NCBI GenBank assembly: GCA_031414775.1
Contig: JANOQI010000012.1
Span: 1-49,879 of the forward strand
DNA: 49,879 bases
Direction of reading: 5' to 3'
DNA from: Synechococcales cyanobacterium VAR_4_metabat_354
GTDB taxonomy: Bacteria > Cyanobacteriota > Cyanobacteriia > Cyanobacteriales > Chamaesiphonaceae
The notes beneath the pieces were generated by a model. It did no database searches and was not told the origin of the DNA. It saw nothing but the letters and a program-made list of their open reading frames with translations. The position numbers were made by a program, and so were the translations under genes. Positions 27,902-39,448 of this stretch are shown here, piece after piece (the first letter of the stretch is position 1; each line of letters begins with the position of its first letter).

Positions 27902-28298
27902 AACTATCTCCTGAAATAAAGGACTTTTCTACATTTGAAAGGTCAAGGCAGCGTTTATGCTGATACCCGACGATGCTTATTCTCAGTCTTCATACGATCG
28001 CCATGATATTATAGCAGTCTCTAAAAGCATGAGATGCATGAAATCTTTGTCTAGCAAAGCTTTCAGTCTTTCAGCTTGTTCCGTTCACTATTGTTTAAAG
28101 CGCTGAGTATGAAGATGGCATTTCGGCTGATTTCTTTAACTTCCCAGGCATTTTTATCAACAAAGAATTACATTTGAAATATGAAGAGCTTTTCACTCGT
28201 AAATGTGTGTCAATAGAAGCACATCTAAACATCATAAATATTCCGACATTGTTGCCTAAATATTTGTGATAAAAAATATCAGCCAAGGAGAAAATCAA

Positions 28299-28493
28299 GT
28301 GATAGAATCTCTCAATTTTTTGTACTATGTATATCCTTATCAATGGCAGGTCAATCCTGAAAGTCTACAGAAGTTTATTGATCAAGTAGATTATCTCTGT
28401 AGTCTGGAGAATAGGGAAGAAATTTCATCCCAAGAAGCATACAATCAAATCAAATTAGCCTTGACGGAACTTGAATTTAGTGAAAACAACTAA
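28299..28493 (+). CDS. Small cyanobacterial conserved-family protein (DUF7219-like), divergent
   Basis: GTG start 8 nt after AGGAG; FLY..YPY...LQKF..QVDYLCSLE...EISSQEAYNQIK resembles the FLYP..Y.G...LQEF.Q.V.YI..LE..GKIS..EAY..IK family. Confidence 0.55.
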   Translation: MIESLNFLYYVYPYQWQVNPESLQKFIDQVDYLCSLENREEISSQEAYNQIKLALTELEFSENN

Positions 28494-28649
28494 ACATCGA
28501 TCAACATCTTTTTCAACAAGAATGATATGAATTTGCAATTTAAACTTGAAATCGCCTGAATCCTTAAAATGTCCGAGAATCAATATCTTTTGGCATTTTA
28601 ATTAGAATCTTCGCATGAAAATTAAAAATGCCAGACTTGACAATCAACT

Positions 28650-29537
28650 TTACCCAGTTTCACCAATTAACCATACTCCTACTATCATTAAACCAACTAG
28701 TCCACATTTAATCGGTAGATTTCTACTAGTTTCACTATCAATTCTTCGTCGCAAAATAGCAATCAGTAAAGATATCCCAAAAGCAAATGCTGGTGTAGAA
28801 GCTTGTATGGCAGAAACTAAAACTGGAATTCCTAGTTTAACCGCTAATTGACCAGTGTAAAGAGCTGTCAAATTAATTAACTCAATTGCTATGAATATAG
28901 GTAAAGCTGTTTTAATTTTCGGTAAATCTTTGATTAATGTTAGTCTAACTTCTTTTATCACTAAGCTACCTAGCCCACTGATAATAATACCAGCGGTAAT
29001 AGCTAAAAATGCTCCAAAAAAATCAGTATGTTCGAAGATATATTTCTCAAGTAGTACTACTACTGTCTGAAGTCCAGCGGCAATTGACATTAAATAGAGA
29101 GTACCCCATCTACTAGTAAATCTATCGATCGAACATAATCCTACAGAAGTAAATACCAATATAATTATGCCAATACAATTGTTTATAGTAATTAAATATC
29201 CAAATAGCCAATAGCTAATAATAGGAAGTAATATAGGGGTGAGATTCCAATATGCTGCGACTGTACCAGAATCGCTACAATCTAAGGCACGAAAATAGAA
29301 TAATTGACTGAGCTGGATAATAGCTCCGGTCATTAAACAGATAAGTAAAATATTCAAATGTGGAATAACTACCGTCACATTTAAAATAGGAAATAGTAAG
29401 AAAATACCAACTGAAATACCGGAACTAGTAATTACACCTAACCACGGCTTACTAAAAATATTATCTACACAATGTTCGTCTAAAATATGAACTACAGCCC
29501 ATAATAAAGAGCTAAGTAAAGAGTATTGTATCCACAT
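28650..29537 (-). CDS. EamA/DMT family transporter
   Basis: About 10 hydrophobic helices in two repeats (FYFRAL...VAAYWNLTP; VSAIQASTPAF); AT-rich codon usage; start MWIQY (alternative 29567). Confidence 0.85.
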   Translation of the reverse strand: MWIQYSLLSSLLWAVVHILDEHCVDNIFSKPWLGVITSSGISVGIFLLFPILNVTVVIPHLNILLICLMTGAIIQLSQLFYFRALDCSDSGTVAAYWNLTPILLPIISYWLFGYLITINNCIGIIILVFTSVGLCSIDRFTSRWGTLYLMSIAAGLQTVVVLLEKYIFEHTDFFGAFLAITAGIIISGLGSLVIKEVRLTLIKDLPKIKTALPIFIAIELINLTALYTGQLAVKLGIPVLVSAIQASTPAFAFGISLLIAILRRRIDSETSRNLPIKCGLVGLMIVGVWLIGETG

Positions 29538-29915
29538 AACAGACCAACTAGAAAAGATAAAAGGCATCCAAAATTCGAGAATATCTAAATTCTCCTGAAA
29601 ATTCGAGATGTGGACAACCTTCTTTTAAGACCTAATTTCTAGATTGATTCCCACTCACTGCATTTAAAGATCAAGAATACAATAGCATGAAAACAATAAT
29701 ATTCTATATTCAAATTAAATATTGTATTTTATAGATATTTCTGATTAAATCTTATTCTTGACACTTTAAGATCTTTTGCTATTTCTATTGATTTTTATAG
29801 TCCTATTCATGGCTAAGATGATAATAATTTGAAGAAAATAATGCTAAATCTTATTTATGGATACCCTCCCACAAAAGGGAAAATATCCATATAAAGTTAA
29901 ATATGATCAAGATTC

Positions 29916-29996
29916 TGTAGATACATAATACTTTACGTTGCGTATCTACACTTTTTGCTCTACACTGTAAATACTGTAAAGCAAAATGTAAAGCAA
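29916..29996. promoter_or_regulatory. Repeat cluster, candidate operator of the RHH gene
   Basis: Inverted pair TGTAGATAC (29916-24) / GTATCTACA (29942-50), TCTACACT twice, TGTAAA three times (TGTAAAGCAAA twice), directly before the ATG. Confidence 0.5.
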
Positions 29997-30311
29997 ATGA
30001 AAAGAATAGCTGTCAATTTTAGGTTAGAAGCAGAGTTACTGGAACTACTCAAAACCACGGCTAAGAGCAAGGCCCTATCAAAAACTGCAATGCTGGAAGA
30101 GTGTTTGAAATCTGTCCTTTCCTCCCCTTCTGACACGGATGGATCGGAGGAAATTAATACAAAAGTAAGTAATAAGGCTAAAGATATTCAAACTCTTGTC
30201 GATGCAACTGTAGAGCAGAAAGTTAATACACATTTCCAGGAAATAGAAAAGGCAATTGCACAGCTCCAAAACGATCTGGCCAAGCTGCGACAATCATCAC
30301 CTTCAAAATAG
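29997..30311 (+). CDS. Ribbon-helix-helix (CopG-like) DNA-binding protein with C-terminal coiled coil
   Basis: MKRIAVNFRL beta strand, E-ELLELLK-TAK helix, LSKTAMLEECL helix; heptad-like C-terminus. Confidence 0.7.
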   Translation: MKRIAVNFRLEAELLELLKTTAKSKALSKTAMLEECLKSVLSSPSDTDGSEEINTKVSNKAKDIQTLVDATVEQKVNTHFQEIEKAIAQLQNDLAKLRQSSPSK

Positions 30312-32470: not shown

Positions 32471-33559
32471 ATGAACAGAATTACCGTCGAAAGTAGAGCC
32501 GTTATTGTAGGTCTGGTGGGCAGTCATGGCTATGGATTGAGTCGGCCAGAGTCTGATCGAGATTATCGGGGCGTATTTGTAGCCCCCAAAAATTATTATC
32601 TGGGTCTGAGTACGATCGAACAAAAAGATCAGGGCTGGAATGAGCCGGGGATGCTGCCTTTTTTGGATGGCAACCAAGATACCGTAATTTATGAATTGCG
32701 TAAATACATGCAACTCTTGGCGGGTTCTAATCCTAATATCTTGGAGTTGCTGTGGCTGAAGGAATATCCTTTTCTGACCCCCGTTGGCGAGAAACTGATT
32801 CGGCACCGCCAAATGTTTTTAAGCAAAAAAGTGAAATACACTTTTTCGGGTTATGCCTTTGCCCAAATTAAAAAAATTGAATCCCATCGCAAATGGTTGC
32901 TCAATCCACCAACTAAAAAACCTGTCCCCGCCGATTTTGATTTTGACTTGGAAGAACCGCTAACTAAAGATGAAGTCAATGCTTTTTTAGAATATTTGTA
33001 CAGCCTCGTGCGCGGCAAAATTGAATATCTGGCTGAATCGCGAGAATTACACCAATTACTCACTGGTGATATCGACTTCAAGGGACTGCTCAAGCAATAT
33101 CCGCTGACAGCTGAATCGATTCTCTATAGTCAGACCTTGACCAATAGTCGGGGCGATTTTATTCGCCTGTTGCAACGCAGCCAAAAATATCGGGCCGCTT
33201 GCGTGGAATGGGCAGCTTATCAATCTTGGCAAAAAAATCGCAATCCACACCGGGCTGGGATGGAGCAAAAATCTGGATACGACCTCAAACATGCTATGCA
33301 CTGTATTCGGTTGCTGCGCTGTGGGGTGGAAATTTTACGCGATGGCCAGGTCTGGGTCGATCGACAAGAAGCGGGTGATGCCGAACAACTTCGATCGATC
33401 ATCAATGGTAATTATAGTTATGAGCAAATTACCCAGTTAGCCGATCAGTTAGTAGCCGAGATGGAGATTGCTTATGGCCAATCTACCTTGCCAGACAAAC
33501 CCGATTTGCAGTCGATCGATCAACTCTGCGTGGAGTTAGTTGAAGAGTTTGGTTGGTAG
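32471..33559 (+). CDS. DNA polymerase beta superfamily nucleotidyltransferase (RlaP/YcgL-like)
   Basis: GSHGYG...SDRDYRGVF (GS..DxD), YELRKY, NPNILELLW, FSGYA..Q, GYDLKHAMHCIRLL. Confidence 0.88.
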   Translation: MNRITVESRAVIVGLVGSHGYGLSRPESDRDYRGVFVAPKNYYLGLSTIEQKDQGWNEPGMLPFLDGNQDTVIYELRKYMQLLAGSNPNILELLWLKEYPFLTPVGEKLIRHRQMFLSKKVKYTFSGYAFAQIKKIESHRKWLLNPPTKKPVPADFDFDLEEPLTKDEVNAFLEYLYSLVRGKIEYLAESRELHQLLTGDIDFKGLLKQYPLTAESILYSQTLTNSRGDFIRLLQRSQKYRAACVEWAAYQSWQKNRNPHRAGMEQKSGYDLKHAMHCIRLLRCGVEILRDGQVWVDRQEAGDAEQLRSIINGNYSYEQITQLADQLVAEMEIAYGQSTLPDKPDLQSIDQLCVELVEEFGW

Positions 33560-35011: not shown

Positions 35012-35230
35012 AATAATTCAGGGGGAGTCCCCCCATCTTCACATGAAACAGTCAAGGTTTTCAATATTATTTGTATATCTAGACACATCTGTCTGCTGGA
35101 ACAACCCAGGAAGGGGCTTTAATAAAAGAACTTTAGTTCAAATGAATTAAATAAAATCAAGTTTATAGTGGTGAAAAAATAGTTTTGAAATAGGACGATT
35201 AAGTAAAGCTTGTCTGGCTCGATACCACAA

Positions 35231-35821
35231 TTAAAAGTAGCAGTTAACAATTAGACAATTGATGGGATTATCCCCTGGATTGTTAACTGTTAAAGCAGAT
35301 AAGATTTCATTCACGAGAATGTCTGGTGTGATTGGTTGATTTGAACTTTGCCAGAGTAAAGATTCGATCTTACCTTGTACTTGCTGATTTAGTTGCAGTG
35401 AATGGGGTGCTTTATCGGTTTTCCCAGAGTCGAAAAAAACGATCGACTGACATCGATCATTAATTATCCAAGTTTCTAAAGATTTTATACTTGTTTCTTG
35501 TTCGTAAAAATGAGAAATATCAGTAGGCTCAGAAGATACCTGATAATCCGAGACTGATGTTGATTCTTGATAACGTTCTAATACTGATTTAATATTGGTT
35601 TTACTAATGCTTTCCCCTAACAATTTAGAGAGAGATCTCCATAGTCGGCAAGCAACTTGCTTGATGTAGTCTAACTCGTAGGACACTTGGTCAGCAATCT
35701 TTTGATAGGTCTTGCCTTCCCAGATATGTAACACAACTATCGATTCTAAATCGTTAAGTTTTCTGTGCTGCTTTTGATCCAAAAGCCGATCGATTAATCT
35801 AACCGCCTGCTGTCCGTTCAT
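35231..35821 (-). CDS. HTH protein of the cyanobacterial NB-ARC/STAND N-terminal type fused to a degenerate, truncated NB-ARC segment
   Basis: LNDLE..VV...WEGKTYQKIA....YELDYIKQVA.RLWRSLS..LGE.ISKTN HTH; then DISHFYEQ...LETWIINDRCQSI, but the Walker A position reads DSGKTDKA; ends after ~196 aa. Likely start MNGQQ at 35821. Confidence 0.75.
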   Translation of the reverse strand: MNGQQAVRLIDRLLDQKQHRKLNDLESIVVLHIWEGKTYQKIADQVSYELDYIKQVACRLWRSLSKLLGESISKTNIKSVLERYQESTSVSDYQVSSEPTDISHFYEQETSIKSLETWIINDRCQSIVFFDSGKTDKAPHSLQLNQQVQGKIESLLWQSSNQPITPDILVNEILSALTVNNPGDNPINCLIVNCYF

Positions 35822-35871
35822 AAAGATGCGCCAATATTTAGTTAGGAAAACATTTTTAATTTCATATATCA

Positions 35872-35914
35872 TTAGCCAAGATTTTAGACATCTTGGCCAA
35901 CAAAAGCCAATATT
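35872..35914. promoter_or_regulatory. Palindromic operator-like site in the divergent promoter
   Basis: TTAGCCAAGAT-N7-ATCTTGGCCAA (10/11 inverted repeat); GCCAATATT at both 35830-38 and 35906-14. Confidence 0.55.
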
Positions 35915-36073
35915 GTATTTGTAATGTACAAACTATATCACCAGTATTTATGGATGCCCGTAATCTAATGTATAAAAGTTTACATATTACTAGACTAACA
36001 ACTCACTTTTTCTCACTGAAAATACGATGAGCTAGATGTAGGCTAAGTTTATGAATTCATATTGGTGCATCCA

Positions 36074-37414
36074 ATGAGTATCCTCAAATTAAACGATCTA
36101 GCTCTGCAATTAGTAGTTCTCGATTTTAGTGATGGACATGCTCCGATCGCTAACAATGGGGGGCCGACCAAAACCTCTCGTGCTTTAGCTATTATTCATC
36201 TGGCGGCTCATGATGCTTATGGCAAGGTGACAGGTAGCCTAGCTCCCCGGCTGGCCACCATCCCCACTCCTCCGGCAACTCTGGGGAATAGTGTAGCGGC
36301 CGGTTCTACGGCGTTACTGGGTGCCGGCATCCGGGCGGCAACAGTACTTTATCCTGATTTTGGAGGATTTATTGCCACTGAAGCGGCTAAGATTTCCAAC
36401 CCTAGTGATCTAGCATATAAGTATGGTGAACTGGTTGCTGATGCTTGGATTGCTGCGAGAGCAAATGATGGATCACAACTTCAACAAACCGATCGCAACT
36501 ATAATCCAGCACCTGGTAAACATCGCCCTGATCCTCTCGATCCTCAGCAACAAACGCTAGGTCGAAAGTGGGGTTCAGTGATACCTTTTGTGCTTTCTAG
36601 TGTTGTTTCTGATGCTCCTTTGCAGTCTCCACCAAGTTTGGATGGCTTAAATGATTCTCATTATCACGGTACTAATTATGCGAAATCTTTTAATGAGGTG
36701 CTCAAGGATGGTAGAAACGACATCATTAATCGAGATCCTAAAAAAGGTGTTATCGGTATTTTCTGGGGTTATGACGGAGCGAATAAGATTGGGGTGCCGC
36801 CACGTATTTATAACCAAGTTGTCCGTGCCATCGTTGGGTTTAAAGATTTCTCCCACAATCATCAAGTTCAAATTTTGACTGCCATTAATGTAGCGATGGC
36901 TGATGCCGGTATTGCGGCTTGGCATTGGAAGTATGCCTATGATGTTTGGCGGCCAGTTTTAGGAATCCGTGAAGCTGATCTGGGCTGGGGTCCGACTGGT
37001 GGGGGTGATAACAATAGTGGTACGCAGGGTGATCCTTTCTGGTTGCCATTGGGGGCACCTAATAGTAATTCGACCAAGCCTAATGGTACTCCAGGTTTTC
37101 CTGCTTATCCGTCAGGACATGCTACTTTTGGGTCGGCTTGTTTTAGAACGGTTGCTGGCATCTTGGGGAAAAAACCAGAAGATATTCATGTGGAGTTTGT
37201 TTCGGATGAATTCAATGGTGTAACTACTGATAATACTGGTGTTGTCCGTCCCCGGTACAAGGCAAAGTTTACGCTGGCGAAGGGGATCACAGATAATAAT
37301 GAGAGTCGGATTTGGCTGGGCGTACACTGGCGATTTGATGCGGAAGGTGGTGAGGTGGTTGGTAATGCTATAGCGGCGAAGGTTGTGGCCGCTTTTCCGT
37401 GCAAGCCTACTTAA
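36074..37414 (+). CDS. Vanadium-dependent haloperoxidase (chloroperoxidase-type)
   Basis: Vanadate-site motifs W.WK....WRP, PGFPAYPSGHATFG, SRIWLGVHWRFD; also RALAIIHLA.HDAY, FWGYDG.NKIGVPPRIYNQ, DPFWLPLGAP. Confidence 0.92.
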   Translation: MSILKLNDLALQLVVLDFSDGHAPIANNGGPTKTSRALAIIHLAAHDAYGKVTGSLAPRLATIPTPPATLGNSVAAGSTALLGAGIRAATVLYPDFGGFIATEAAKISNPSDLAYKYGELVADAWIAARANDGSQLQQTDRNYNPAPGKHRPDPLDPQQQTLGRKWGSVIPFVLSSVVSDAPLQSPPSLDGLNDSHYHGTNYAKSFNEVLKDGRNDIINRDPKKGVIGIFWGYDGANKIGVPPRIYNQVVRAIVGFKDFSHNHQVQILTAINVAMADAGIAAWHWKYAYDVWRPVLGIREADLGWGPTGGGDNNSGTQGDPFWLPLGAPNSNSTKPNGTPGFPAYPSGHATFGSACFRTVAGILGKKPEDIHVEFVSDEFNGVTTDNTGVVRPRYKAKFTLAKGITDNNESRIWLGVHWRFDAEGGEVVGNAIAAKVVAAFPCKPT

Positions 37415-37629
37415 TAGATTTATTTCTGGTTGTTCGATCGATACTAGTACAAAATATTGATCGGACAATTCTCGAAATTTCATCGCCTCAATATTTCAAT
37501 AAATAGAGAATTGATCTCTACCTTTTTTGAATTAATCAATGTAAAATGCAGTGTCAAAACACTTTTACGGAACTCGACGAAATCTTTACTTATTATCTTG
37601 CTAATGATAAATAGCTGAGGGGATATTTC

Positions 37630-37998
37630 ATGAAAAATTTTAGTAGTTACATGAAAACCATCTCTCACTCTGAATTGAGAGAAACATTGAAATCGATAGT
37701 TGCTATCATGATTGGAACTGGTTCTTGGATCCTCTTGGGATGGCTCATTTATGCACAGTTCAAAACAAGTCAGTCTTTTGCTTATCAACTGGCTGCAACT
37801 TCACCAGATAACAAAGAGCGCATTGTTCTCATCAAAGATGCAAATGAAACAGTTATCAAAACGTCTAGTTCACTATTTTCATTACTAATGTCAGTTGCAA
37901 CAGCTATTACTGGATACTTTTTCATAACTTCAGGTGTGAAAATTGATAAGAGGAATAAGCCTGATTCACCACAGCTGCCAAATTCTCTTGGGTCTTAA
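37630..37998 (+). CDS. Small 2-TM membrane protein
   Basis: GAGGGG RBS; hydrophobic segments IVAIMIGTGSWILLGWLIY and LFSLLMSVATAITGYFF. Confidence 0.7.
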   Translation: MKNFSSYMKTISHSELRETLKSIVAIMIGTGSWILLGWLIYAQFKTSQSFAYQLAATSPDNKERIVLIKDANETVIKTSSSLFSLLMSVATAITGYFFITSGVKIDKRNKPDSPQLPNSLGS

Positions 37999-38096
37999 CA
38001 TCTTCATTATGATCATCAAATAAATTATCAAAAGATTTTAAGTCTATAAGTAAAACTGTCATCATTAGTCAACCTTAATATCGGTTTAAATAAATC

Positions 38097-39044
38097 ATGG
38101 GAATAGATTATATCGTCTTTGTTCACGGAGTAAATAATAGAGTCGAAGAGGATTTTGAGCGGCAAGCCATGAGCACTTTTGCTAAAATCAAAGCTCATGT
38201 TGATCCGAATTCATCTAGAGTTCTCAAACCAGTTATATTGTTTTGGGGAAATGTAGCAGAAGAACCTATAAATTTACTTTTGGAAGGACTTGATGCTTCT
38301 TCTGCATGGCAACAATATTGGTTTAGAGAGTTTCGTACAACTCAGGTTATTAATTTTGTTGGAGATGCTGCACTCTATTTGAGTCGCAACGTCAGTGTAC
38401 AGATTATTAGTCAGATGATTGAACAATCCTTAAAACAAATGGATCTTAATTTAGATGATGTGAAAAACAAGTCACCACAAGATGGTGATCGTTTACATCT
38501 AGTTACCCATAGTTGGGGTACTGTCATCTTATTCGATATCATGTTTGCAGATCGGTGGGAAGATTCCAATCTCCCTCCAAATATTCTTGAGTTGGTTGAT
38601 AATATTCGCAGTATACTTTTTGGAATTGGTAAGCCAGCAATCAAAAATCTTGGTATTCCCATTGCCAGTATTCATACGATGGGATCACCTATCTCATTAT
38701 TCAATCTACTCAATGCCTCTGGTGCAAGGAGTTTTAACCTCACGCCCAAACTAAAAGATTTTTTGACTTCTTTGCACGCAATCACCGGTGCAGCGCTACC
38801 TTGGTATAACTATGCTCATCCAGGCGATCCAATTGCCTATCCATTAAAGGGTGTGATGGATCTATCACTAGATGAGGCTAAAAGTTTTGTCCAAGTCGAA
38901 GACATTATGATTCCGGTAAACTTTTTGGATCGAATTTTGGGTACAGGGACTCTCTCTATACTTAATGGTGGAAAAGCTCACAGTAGTTATTGGACTAATC
39001 AATCGGTAGCTAAAACTATTGCAGGAGTGATTAAGTCACACTGA
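38097..39044 (+). CDS. Alpha/beta-fold hydrolase (lipase/esterase-like)
   Basis: VFVHGV oxyanion strand, THSWG nucleophile elbow, TMGSP, HPGDPIAYPL (Asp), AHSSYW (His). Confidence 0.8.
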   Translation: MGIDYIVFVHGVNNRVEEDFERQAMSTFAKIKAHVDPNSSRVLKPVILFWGNVAEEPINLLLEGLDASSAWQQYWFREFRTTQVINFVGDAALYLSRNVSVQIISQMIEQSLKQMDLNLDDVKNKSPQDGDRLHLVTHSWGTVILFDIMFADRWEDSNLPPNILELVDNIRSILFGIGKPAIKNLGIPIASIHTMGSPISLFNLLNASGARSFNLTPKLKDFLTSLHAITGAALPWYNYAHPGDPIAYPLKGVMDLSLDEAKSFVQVEDIMIPVNFLDRILGTGTLSILNGGKAHSSYWTNQSVAKTIAGVIKSH

Positions 39045-39171
39045 AAAATGTGACAATTATTAGATTTAGTTTCTAAAGATGACCCTGCGCTGGAATACTG
39101 ATGGAAAACAAAAATATGTCGATCGATCACTTTCAGCTCCTTAACTAAATCGTGGCAAAAAGCATTTGCTT

Positions 39172-39217
39172 ATAGCAAAAAGCCAGGTAATAAATAGTTT
39201 ACCTGGTTCTTTGCTAT
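39172..39217. terminator. Long bidirectional hairpin terminator
   Basis: ATAGCAAA..GCCAGGTAA / TTACCTGGT..TTTGCTAT between convergent genes. Confidence 0.6.
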
Positions 39218-39259
39218 GACCAAATATTTCAACTAACAGTGATATCTCAGTAGCCGATG

Positions 39260-39448
39260 TTAATAAGCTAGAGTCTCTAAAGTTTCACGCAAATAAATCT
39301 GCACTAGAGCATCCAAGTCTTTAGATTCATTACCTAAGTCACTGCTACGCCAATACTGAAATCCAGGAGTGCTAGTGATTGCTTGGCGCAGACTGCCCCA
39401 GGTGGCAGAAGTATTGACGGCGGGAATGGAGGTTGGAATGTGATTCAT
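39260..39448 (-). CDS. Conserved small cyanobacterial hypothetical protein
   Basis: W.SL.QAI..TPGFQYW...LD.LV..YLRETLETLAY, a recurring cyanobacterial small-protein pattern. Confidence 0.8.
   Translation of the reverse strand: MNHIPTSIPAVNTSATWGSLRQAITSTPGFQYWRSSDLGNESKDLDALVQIYLRETLETLAY

Follow-up and report, generated by a model that had tools for sequence, protein, structure and literature searches.

The window analysed here, a 49,879-nt stretch that is one whole contig of the genome of Synechococcales cyanobacterium VAR_4_metabat_354 (G000; 3.56 Mb, 99.96% complete), carries a vanadium chloroperoxidase (VCPO) gene divergent from a helix-turn-helix (HTH) gene and followed by genes for a protein with two predicted transmembrane segments (2-TM) and for an alpha/beta hydrolase. 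The locus raises the question of whether these four genes belong together, as an earlier note on this DNA had proposed in describing a dedicated, inducible halogenation module. The four open reading frames (ORFs) were present with the positions and orientations given there (35231-35872 on the minus strand; 36062/36074-37414, 37630-37998, and 38097-39044 on the plus strand). Comparison with 60 relatives (61 genomes with G000; G001 being the closest relative) indicated instead that they form no fixed module and exemplify an arrangement that is more widespread in cyanobacteria. On sequence evidence, we consider it probable that a regulon with interchangeable cargo, controlled by STAND proteins resembling MalT and AfsR, includes this locus as one of its arrays.

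The composition of the arrays varied among relatives. A VCPO orthologue was present in nine of the 60 genomes (62-92% identity), a hydrolase match in 13, and a 2-TM match in five, whereas all four genes stood in one array only in G017, together with three further genes. HTH and VCPO genes were divergent neighbours in four of the nine relatives with a VCPO orthologue, and the 2-TM gene was paired with the hydrolase gene in two of its five matches (G017 and G030). Between the same flanks, G001 presented the HTH (87%) and VCPO (92%) genes followed by those for two proteins of 159 and 128 aa and for a Tle1-like lipase. The short HTH gene headed an array of S8 protease, amidase, VanY, 2-TM, and hydrolase genes without VCPO in G030, an M28/endonuclease/M4/emfourin/ferritin-like array ending in VCPO in G034, and a haem peroxidase gene in G031; full-length members of the same HTH clade headed lipoxygenase, lipase, and hydrolase arrays. 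Congeners, too, differed in their cargo, and several near-complete relatives gave no sign of the system.

These data bear on the idea of a dedicated four-gene unit, whose chloroperoxidase, hydrolase, and membrane protein would share a single pathway for quorum quenching or abortive infection. Such a unit would fit the recurrence of all four genes in G017, the near-identical copies (roughly 90-94% identity) that span three abutting contigs in a run (X7) of a separate study and indicate that close strains keep this version, and the adjacency of the 2-TM and hydrolase genes in G017 and G030. Nevertheless, it appears very unlikely, given that the complete set occurred in 1 of 60 relatives, that other genes replace the last two at this site in G001, that G030 has 2-TM and hydrolase without VCPO, that the hydrolase homologues of 13 genomes mostly had no VCPO nearby, and that PADLOC gave no match below E 0.001. 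As the recurrent pairs were HTH with VCPO and 2-TM with hydrolase, all four coming together only in G017, the suggested sequence of halogenation and then hydrolysis was left unsupported. A chance mosaic can also be set aside, because every one of the cargo genes is found again at other loci, preceded by a common promoter box.

This box was found by aligning the intergenic regions between HTH and cargo genes, which have ACTTTTTCTYACYGAC in common; its core occurred in 31 of 34 regions. The core is non-palindromic, a direct repeat abutting the -35 element of a predicted sigma70-type promoter, and its repeat unit, TTTTTCTCAC, appeared as three perfect tandem copies in loci L148 and L156. No support was obtained for the operator-like palindrome of the earlier note: the candidate at 35880-35960 folded no better than shuffled sequences (z -0.8), and no palindrome was conserved among nine aligned intergenic regions, the conserved element being the direct repeat. 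A position weight matrix built from 25 sites outside G000 and G001 detected 12 sites of at least 22 bits in G000 against 0-1 per column-shuffled control (n = 10), and in the window it detected a single site, at 36001, with none other above 8 bits. The exact pattern gave 81 matches in the 61 genomes vs. five for the reversed pattern. Promoter geometry was also constrained: in 88 distinct sites, TAnnnT lay 17 bp (36 sites) or 18 bp (36 sites) after CYGACN, with at most five sites at each other spacing; after thinning for kin, one of these two spacings was seen in 45 of 60 sites (shuffled mean 4.1, maximum 13 in 1000 shuffles). Transcription of the window cargo is predicted to start near 36051.

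Boxes were present before VCPO, hydrolase, and 2-TM homologues without an adjacent HTH gene (G007, G034, G051, G006, L129, and a second VCPO of G000) and recurred inside arrays, a pattern that suggests a regulon acting in trans. Varied and mostly leaderless enzymes were encoded behind the box (VCPO, lipoxygenase, peroxidases, lysozyme, amidases, lipases, and proteases). The second, more distant VCPO of G000 (C62:249379-256504) is followed by HAD-M28, M4-like, 407-aa, and emfourin-like genes, the same cargo as in the G034 array, with two boxes and no adjacent HTH gene. Boxes were also observed before operons of homeodomain-HTH, peptidase-containing ABC transporter, and HlyD-like genes in G000 and G007 (C46:471 and C62:268594 in G000; L170, L171), and type I secretion may be part of the regulon. 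At L174:4060-10958 (G009), a box preceded an HTH-like 299-aa gene and what looked by eye like a chaperone-usher pilus cluster.

Occurrence of the box was linked to one clade of HTH proteins. At least 22 of the 51 exact sites not used for training lay within 10 kb of an HTH match, with about one expected; this count used 150 listed of 443 HTH matches, and some sites were in the same arrays as training sites. Within the family, the exact box was found in 24 of 29 genomes with a close HTH homologue (E < 1e-22) and in none of the seven without. Twenty box loci outside the family included nine with a divergent HTH homologue, the proportion being 8 of 12 within a genus of another family (g27), where the cargo comprised lysozyme, C39 peptidase, and LysM. 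A blind scan of metagenomes gave an HTH gene, always divergent, in 19 of the 80 matches listed out of 110 stretches (17 of 78 loci after removing two duplicates); most loci without HTH looked non-cyanobacterial or short. When 20 loci were picked by protein similarity alone, the box accompanied all seven proteins with the helix [DE]Y[IVT]K[QKH] and none of 11 others, two loci being without upstream DNA. Over all protein-ascertained rows the values were 14 of 18 for the helix class, four of these 14 being G000 and G001 rows seen earlier, and 0 of 29 for the others. Divergent linkage held at 75-270 bp in most cases, in at least four families. Since kin are not independent, these counts represent clade associations and carry no valid P-value. 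The HTH protein most likely governs the divergent genes, as had been suggested.

Loci with lipoxygenase-like genes were observed in addition. At C36:48122-53417 of G000, and in L097, L098, and L100, a full-length clade member is divergent from a gene for a lipoxygenase-like protein of 466-468 aa under a box, and the corresponding locus of G007 has two tandem STAND genes with a box for each.

The HTH protein of the window proved to be STAND-derived, in agreement with the earlier note, and aligned over its full length with the first ~190 residues of HTH-NB-ARC-WD40 proteins of ~1200 aa. Alignment and model indicated a LuxR/NarL-like HTH (residues 8-85) followed by a degenerate NB-ARC start, in which the Walker A motif GxGGIGKT has become DSGKTDKA and the chain breaks off at the Walker B strand; it has neither intact Walker motifs (A and B) nor helical and sensor domains, and it gave no NB-ARC match in Pfam. 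Longer relatives kept GxGGIGKT (NB-ARC E 3e-10 in L145 and 4e-9 in L103; 12 WD40 stretches in L089). The model, with pLDDT about 90 over residues 1-80, was all-helical without a wing, and there was no Pfam match to OmpR-type winged HTH or BTAD; structural matches (VIA) were RcsB (Z 7.7) and NarL (Z 7.5), along with VqmA, TraR, and GerE (range Z 6.8-7.7). There were 154 near-length homologues at E ≤ 1e-20, all of the 120 listed carrying PF26355, which we take from its name to be a VMAP-associated family; the named homologues were from Chamaesiphon spp. Ratios of nonsynonymous to synonymous substitution (dN/dS) across eight orthologues ranged from 0.06 to 0.22 for the HTH and from 0.15 to 0.54 for the remnant, some pairs being saturated. 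A quick tree (the careful search was unfinished) placed the short form in one clade of 12 rows (SH-aLRT 100) and other truncation lengths elsewhere. A pseudogene remnant was ruled out by dN/dS, the shared end-point, and the 12-row clade: the short form is a conserved, maintained truncation of ~200 aa that has kept the HTH and lost the P-loop and sensor. HTH-NB-ARC-WD40 genes are numerous in cyanobacteria, with matches in 59 of the 61 genomes, and are annotated by domain only. As a separate observation, proteins of 268-279 aa with an HTH, pentapeptide repeats, and another domain were divergent from triple-repeat boxes in L148, L155, L156, and L239; a UvrD-like helicase in L148 and L155 scored against the PADLOC system NERD+UvrD.

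Several results weigh against control of the box by this clade. Four of the 18 protein-ascertained members of the helix class had no box, four loci with other helices did have it (L148, L155, L239, and L159), and G004 and G035 had boxes with no close HTH found and a different STAND clade adjoining; these exceptions suggest that more than one paralogue may read the box. Because the box and the helix class are both mostly characters of a single clade, the counts are not independent, and the definition of that class followed inspection of the data. Many G000 boxes were orphans before type I secretion operons or small unknown genes, which do not look like evident weapons, and VCPO orthologues without a box occurred in G005 and G036 (two of the nine relatives), in four Nostoc, and in one Phormidesmis. 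Across the phylum, singletons of the exact pattern outside g27 were near chance (49 vs. about 25 in the control, 401 genomes). No box preceded the 2-TM gene of the window, where the matching place has a full box in G017 and a degenerate one in G001, so that its control by the VCPO promoter would need read-through over 215 nt; co-transcription of the three cargo genes is presumed. The fold match of the HTH was middling (Z < 8, root-mean-square deviation 1.9-2.6, 63-66 residues aligned), and Foldseek returned none at E ≤ 0.001 (E > 0.4).

Alternatively, the box might be read by some other factor acting in trans, either a group-2 sigma factor or an unlinked regulator, the HTH-STAND genes being neighbours or co-regulated members of variable islands. 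Ten of the 12 strong G000 sites lack a divergent HTH gene, and the boxes of G004 and G035 without a close HTH would be accounted for; however, the fixed divergent linkage across families, and the absence of the box from all seven family genomes lacking the clade, make this explanation quite improbable.

In the proposed explanation, a clade of LuxR-like HTH, NB-ARC, and WD40 proteins would bind the 10-bp direct repeat at the -35 and would most likely activate sigma70-type promoters, as MalT and AfsR do. By analogy with AfsR, full-length members would have their NB-ARC switch released when the WD40 sensor binds a ligand, and the window protein would most likely activate without a ligand, its control resting on a partner or on its own expression. 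Likenesses to AfsR, a SARP-NOD-TPR protein of Streptomyces, include an N-terminal DNA-binding domain on a STAND module, tandem direct repeats overlapping the -35, and control, here predicted, of an antagonistic output. One source (PMC10936776) reports that NOD and TPR inhibit AfsR, that truncations lacking them activate in vitro, and that NOD is needed in vivo, and describes MalT as an inducer- and ATP-activated STAND regulator. AfsR differs in its OmpR-type SARP domain, 11-bp repeats running into the spacer, TPR sensor, and antibiotic clusters, whereas the present system has a LuxR-like tetrahelical HTH, 10-bp repeats upstream of the -35, a WD40 sensor, natural sensor-less forms, and enzyme cargo. 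MalT and other LAL proteins are STAND activators whose LuxR-type HTH binds asymmetric boxes next to the -35; the HTH of MalT is C-terminal and its sensor TPR-like, unlike the N-terminal HTH and WD40 sensor here.

With the same protein-box pair, the short HTH could conversely repress, occluding the -35 or competing with full-length activators, and toxic cargo would stay silent up to the removal of this protein. Given the overlap of the box with the -35 hexamer and the closeness of CYGACA to the sigma70 consensus, these promoters could work unaided; moreover, the short form is without the oligomerising NTPase, and G000 also has a full-length clade member under the same box (C36). The repeats, however, reach upstream of the -35, the usual place for a class II activator, and not over the spacer or -10, and the best listed full-length matches in G017 were weak (E ≥ 2e-20), so that a close full-length partner need not accompany the short form. 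We regard repression as unlikely and retain activation as the preferred reading.

Other STAND systems were also compared. Apaf-1 and bacterial Apaf-1-like STANDs share the effector-NB-ARC-WD40 layout and the length of about 1200 aa, and the closest Apaf-1 homologues lie in cyanobacteria according to PMC13581612. In our proteins, unlike Apaf-1, the N-terminus is a predicted DNA-binding HTH and not a CARD or caspase, and the output would be transcription. A PDB search matched Apaf-1 through the WD40 repeats, whereas for the NB-ARC region the match was to 6j5t_G, a plant NLR chain (E 2.6e-4). HTH and AP-ATPase domains are effector modules in the ternary vWA-MoxR-VMAP conflict systems, for which the available portion of the source describes no operator or regulon (Kaur et al., 2020, PMC7159879); the window HTH resembles them in carrying PF26355 and differs in that no MoxR or vWA gene adjoins the locus. 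Fusions of sigma r4 with NB-ARC have been noted, with no targets given in the accessible text (PMC11119718). Literature searches found no description of the operator or regulon, although supplements of STAND surveys could list these proteins; for the literal box motif, titles were unrelated among the matches listed.

All four genes of the window are real and under purifying selection, with chloroperoxidase and hydrolase active sites intact as judged by alignment. The VCPO matched vanadium chloroperoxidase chains of the PDB at E 5e-39, the best being of the Curvularia type. Residues K286, R293, S347-G348-H349, R412, and H418, the full set of vanadate ligands, aligned with those of the PDB enzyme and were invariant in 16 sequences, as was F342 (in PGFPAYPSGH), the active-site Phe separating chloro- from bromoperoxidases. 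The window enzyme is bacterial and has 446 aa vs. 609 aa in the Curvularia type; enzymes of Chamaesiphon spp. were 68-71% identical to it. It is without a hydrophobic leader, unlike most AQ-VHPOs (vanadium haloperoxidases, VHPOs), which carry signal peptides according to PMC11312541. The 2-TM protein gave no known family in Pfam, and its best ESM Atlas match (0.88) had no family. In the hydrolase, Ser139-Asp244-His295 was invariant in 12 of 12 aligned sequences; the match to Pfam DDHD (E 3e-5, 24.6 bits) fell below the cut-off of 28.3, there was no informative PDB match, and ESM Atlas returned unnamed cyanobacterial clusters (0.97). A mobile or phage origin was rejected: hydrolase relatives were absent from viral contigs, HTH relatives gave no match in phages, and the 45 plasmid records matching the HTH were distant (<60% identity; 24-33% in the 25 listed).

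A strongly hydrophobic N-terminus was absent from 19 of 22 cargo proteins, as estimated by crude hydropathy and not by SignalP. A phage-sheath search had no match in G000 (control positive in 3 of 14), and a contractile injection system was rejected as a delivery route for that reason; the phage-tube search matched nowhere and was uninformative. Mostly leaderless cargo together with the lack of a sheath gene in G000 makes release by lysis or action inside the cell plausible. PADLOC 2023 lent no support to a known anti-phage system, the HTH reaching E 0.0028 at best (PDC-S02) and the other three window proteins giving no match; of the 16 additional proteins checked, scores came only from the UvrD helicase and from a match to a WD40 repeat.

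The identity and turnover of the cargo suggest that the predicted hypohalite-producing VCPO, the 2-TM protein, and the phospholipase-like hydrolase probably serve antagonism or lytic defence in biofilms. A developmental regulon would change this role and not the regulatory mechanism: the cargo would bring about controlled autolysis or opening of sheath and wall for cell release or filament fragmentation. Leaderless peptidoglycan hydrolases are recurrent as cargo, and filamentous cyanobacteria are known to undergo a regulated death in the form of necridia (PMC9415839). We consider this role unlikely, however, as cargo differs between congeners and several near-complete relatives appear to be without the system, a turnover that would be more typical of conflict genes. 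A tentative extension of the antagonistic role is a transcriptional form of NLR immunity, in which Apaf-1-like HTH-NB-ARC-WD40 receptors might sense an invader or damage as the trigger, oligomerise on the tandem 10-bp repeats, and switch on an exchangeable, leaderless oxidant and lytic arsenal that kills either the cell itself or, once it has lysed, those attacking it; truncations without a sensor (about 153, 200, 300, 435, and 465-490 aa, of several origins) would then be constitutive or relay activators.

Regarding the setting of the locus, GC contents of the HTH, 2-TM, and hydrolase genes (0.36, 0.36, and 0.385) were below those of ten flanking genes (0.45-0.52), whereas the VCPO gene (0.47) was AT-rich at third positions only (GC3 0.36). 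The VCPO lies outside a natural-product cluster, as had been noted: condensation and ketosynthase domains of polyketide and nonribosomal peptide synthases were absent from the contig, occurring in G000 on C41, C62, and C16, and prenyltransferases were not searched by profile. The closing hairpin of the earlier note is real (fold z -6.9; 0 of 200 shuffles as good), but it appears to be a terminator at the site boundary, because it lies beyond the convergent 62-aa gene, 35 nt past its end, and is partly kept in G001, whose cargo differs. Positions of all these features are given in Table 1.

Table 1. Features of the array and its boundary, in window coordinates, with the basis of each assignment.
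Feature	Position	Strand	Basis or remark
Truncated STAND regulator, 196 aa, ATG at 35821 (ORF open to 35872)	35231..35821	-	Alignment, structure model, dN/dS
Conserved A/T element AAAAGTTTACATATTAC, possibly further half-sites	35974..35990	+	Conserved columns; information peaks 19-32 bp upstream of core
Direct-repeat box CTCAC-TTTTT-CTCAC, 10-bp period, predicted operator	36002..36016	+	28.4 bits
-35-like hexamer CTGAAA (family consensus CYGACA), overlaps last box base	36016..36021	+	
Predicted -10 element TAGGCT, 17 bp after -35 hexamer	36039..36044	+	Spacer statistics
Vanadium haloperoxidase, fungal chloroperoxidase type, no hydrophobic leader	36074..37414	+	PDB match, alignment
122-aa protein, two hydrophobic segments (about residues 22-40, 76-100)	37630..37998	+	dN/dS 0.25-0.29
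Alpha/beta hydrolase, DDHD/phospholipase-A1-like	38097..39044	+	dN/dS 0.23-0.26
Hairpin, 27-bp arms, probable bidirectional terminator	39164..39225		Between array and convergent 62-aa gene
62-aa ORF, convergent on hairpin	39260..39448	-	DNA strongly conserved in G001

The neighbours of the array are an ABC ATPase gene and a peroxiredoxin-like gene. Between the ABC ATPase and HTH genes, at 35034-35061, run X7 has 1554 different letters, a further insertion point beside the array. An RlaP-family nucleotidyltransferase (32471-33559 on the plus strand, E 4e-21) keeps its place next to the ABC ATPase in both G001 and G007. Two other AT-rich stretches were observed, one at 28000-30300 with an EamA transporter and a small CopG-like gene, and one at the contig end (48184-49727) with an apparent cytosine methyltransferase and a 192-aa partner. 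No repeated boundary sequence of the kind seen with integron-like cassettes was found in the window, an attC model search not being made.

With an operator, a promoter, and a list of targets predicted, the function of HTH-NB-ARC-WD40 proteins could be tested using a probe of 60 bp and a protein of 90 residues, and box-driven reporters would permit a ligand screen for an Apaf-1-like bacterial sensor. The proposed regulon would place a freshwater chloroperoxidase of fungal type, lipoxygenases, and peroxidases in one control circuit, and would explain why bacterial VHPOs can sit outside biosynthetic clusters.

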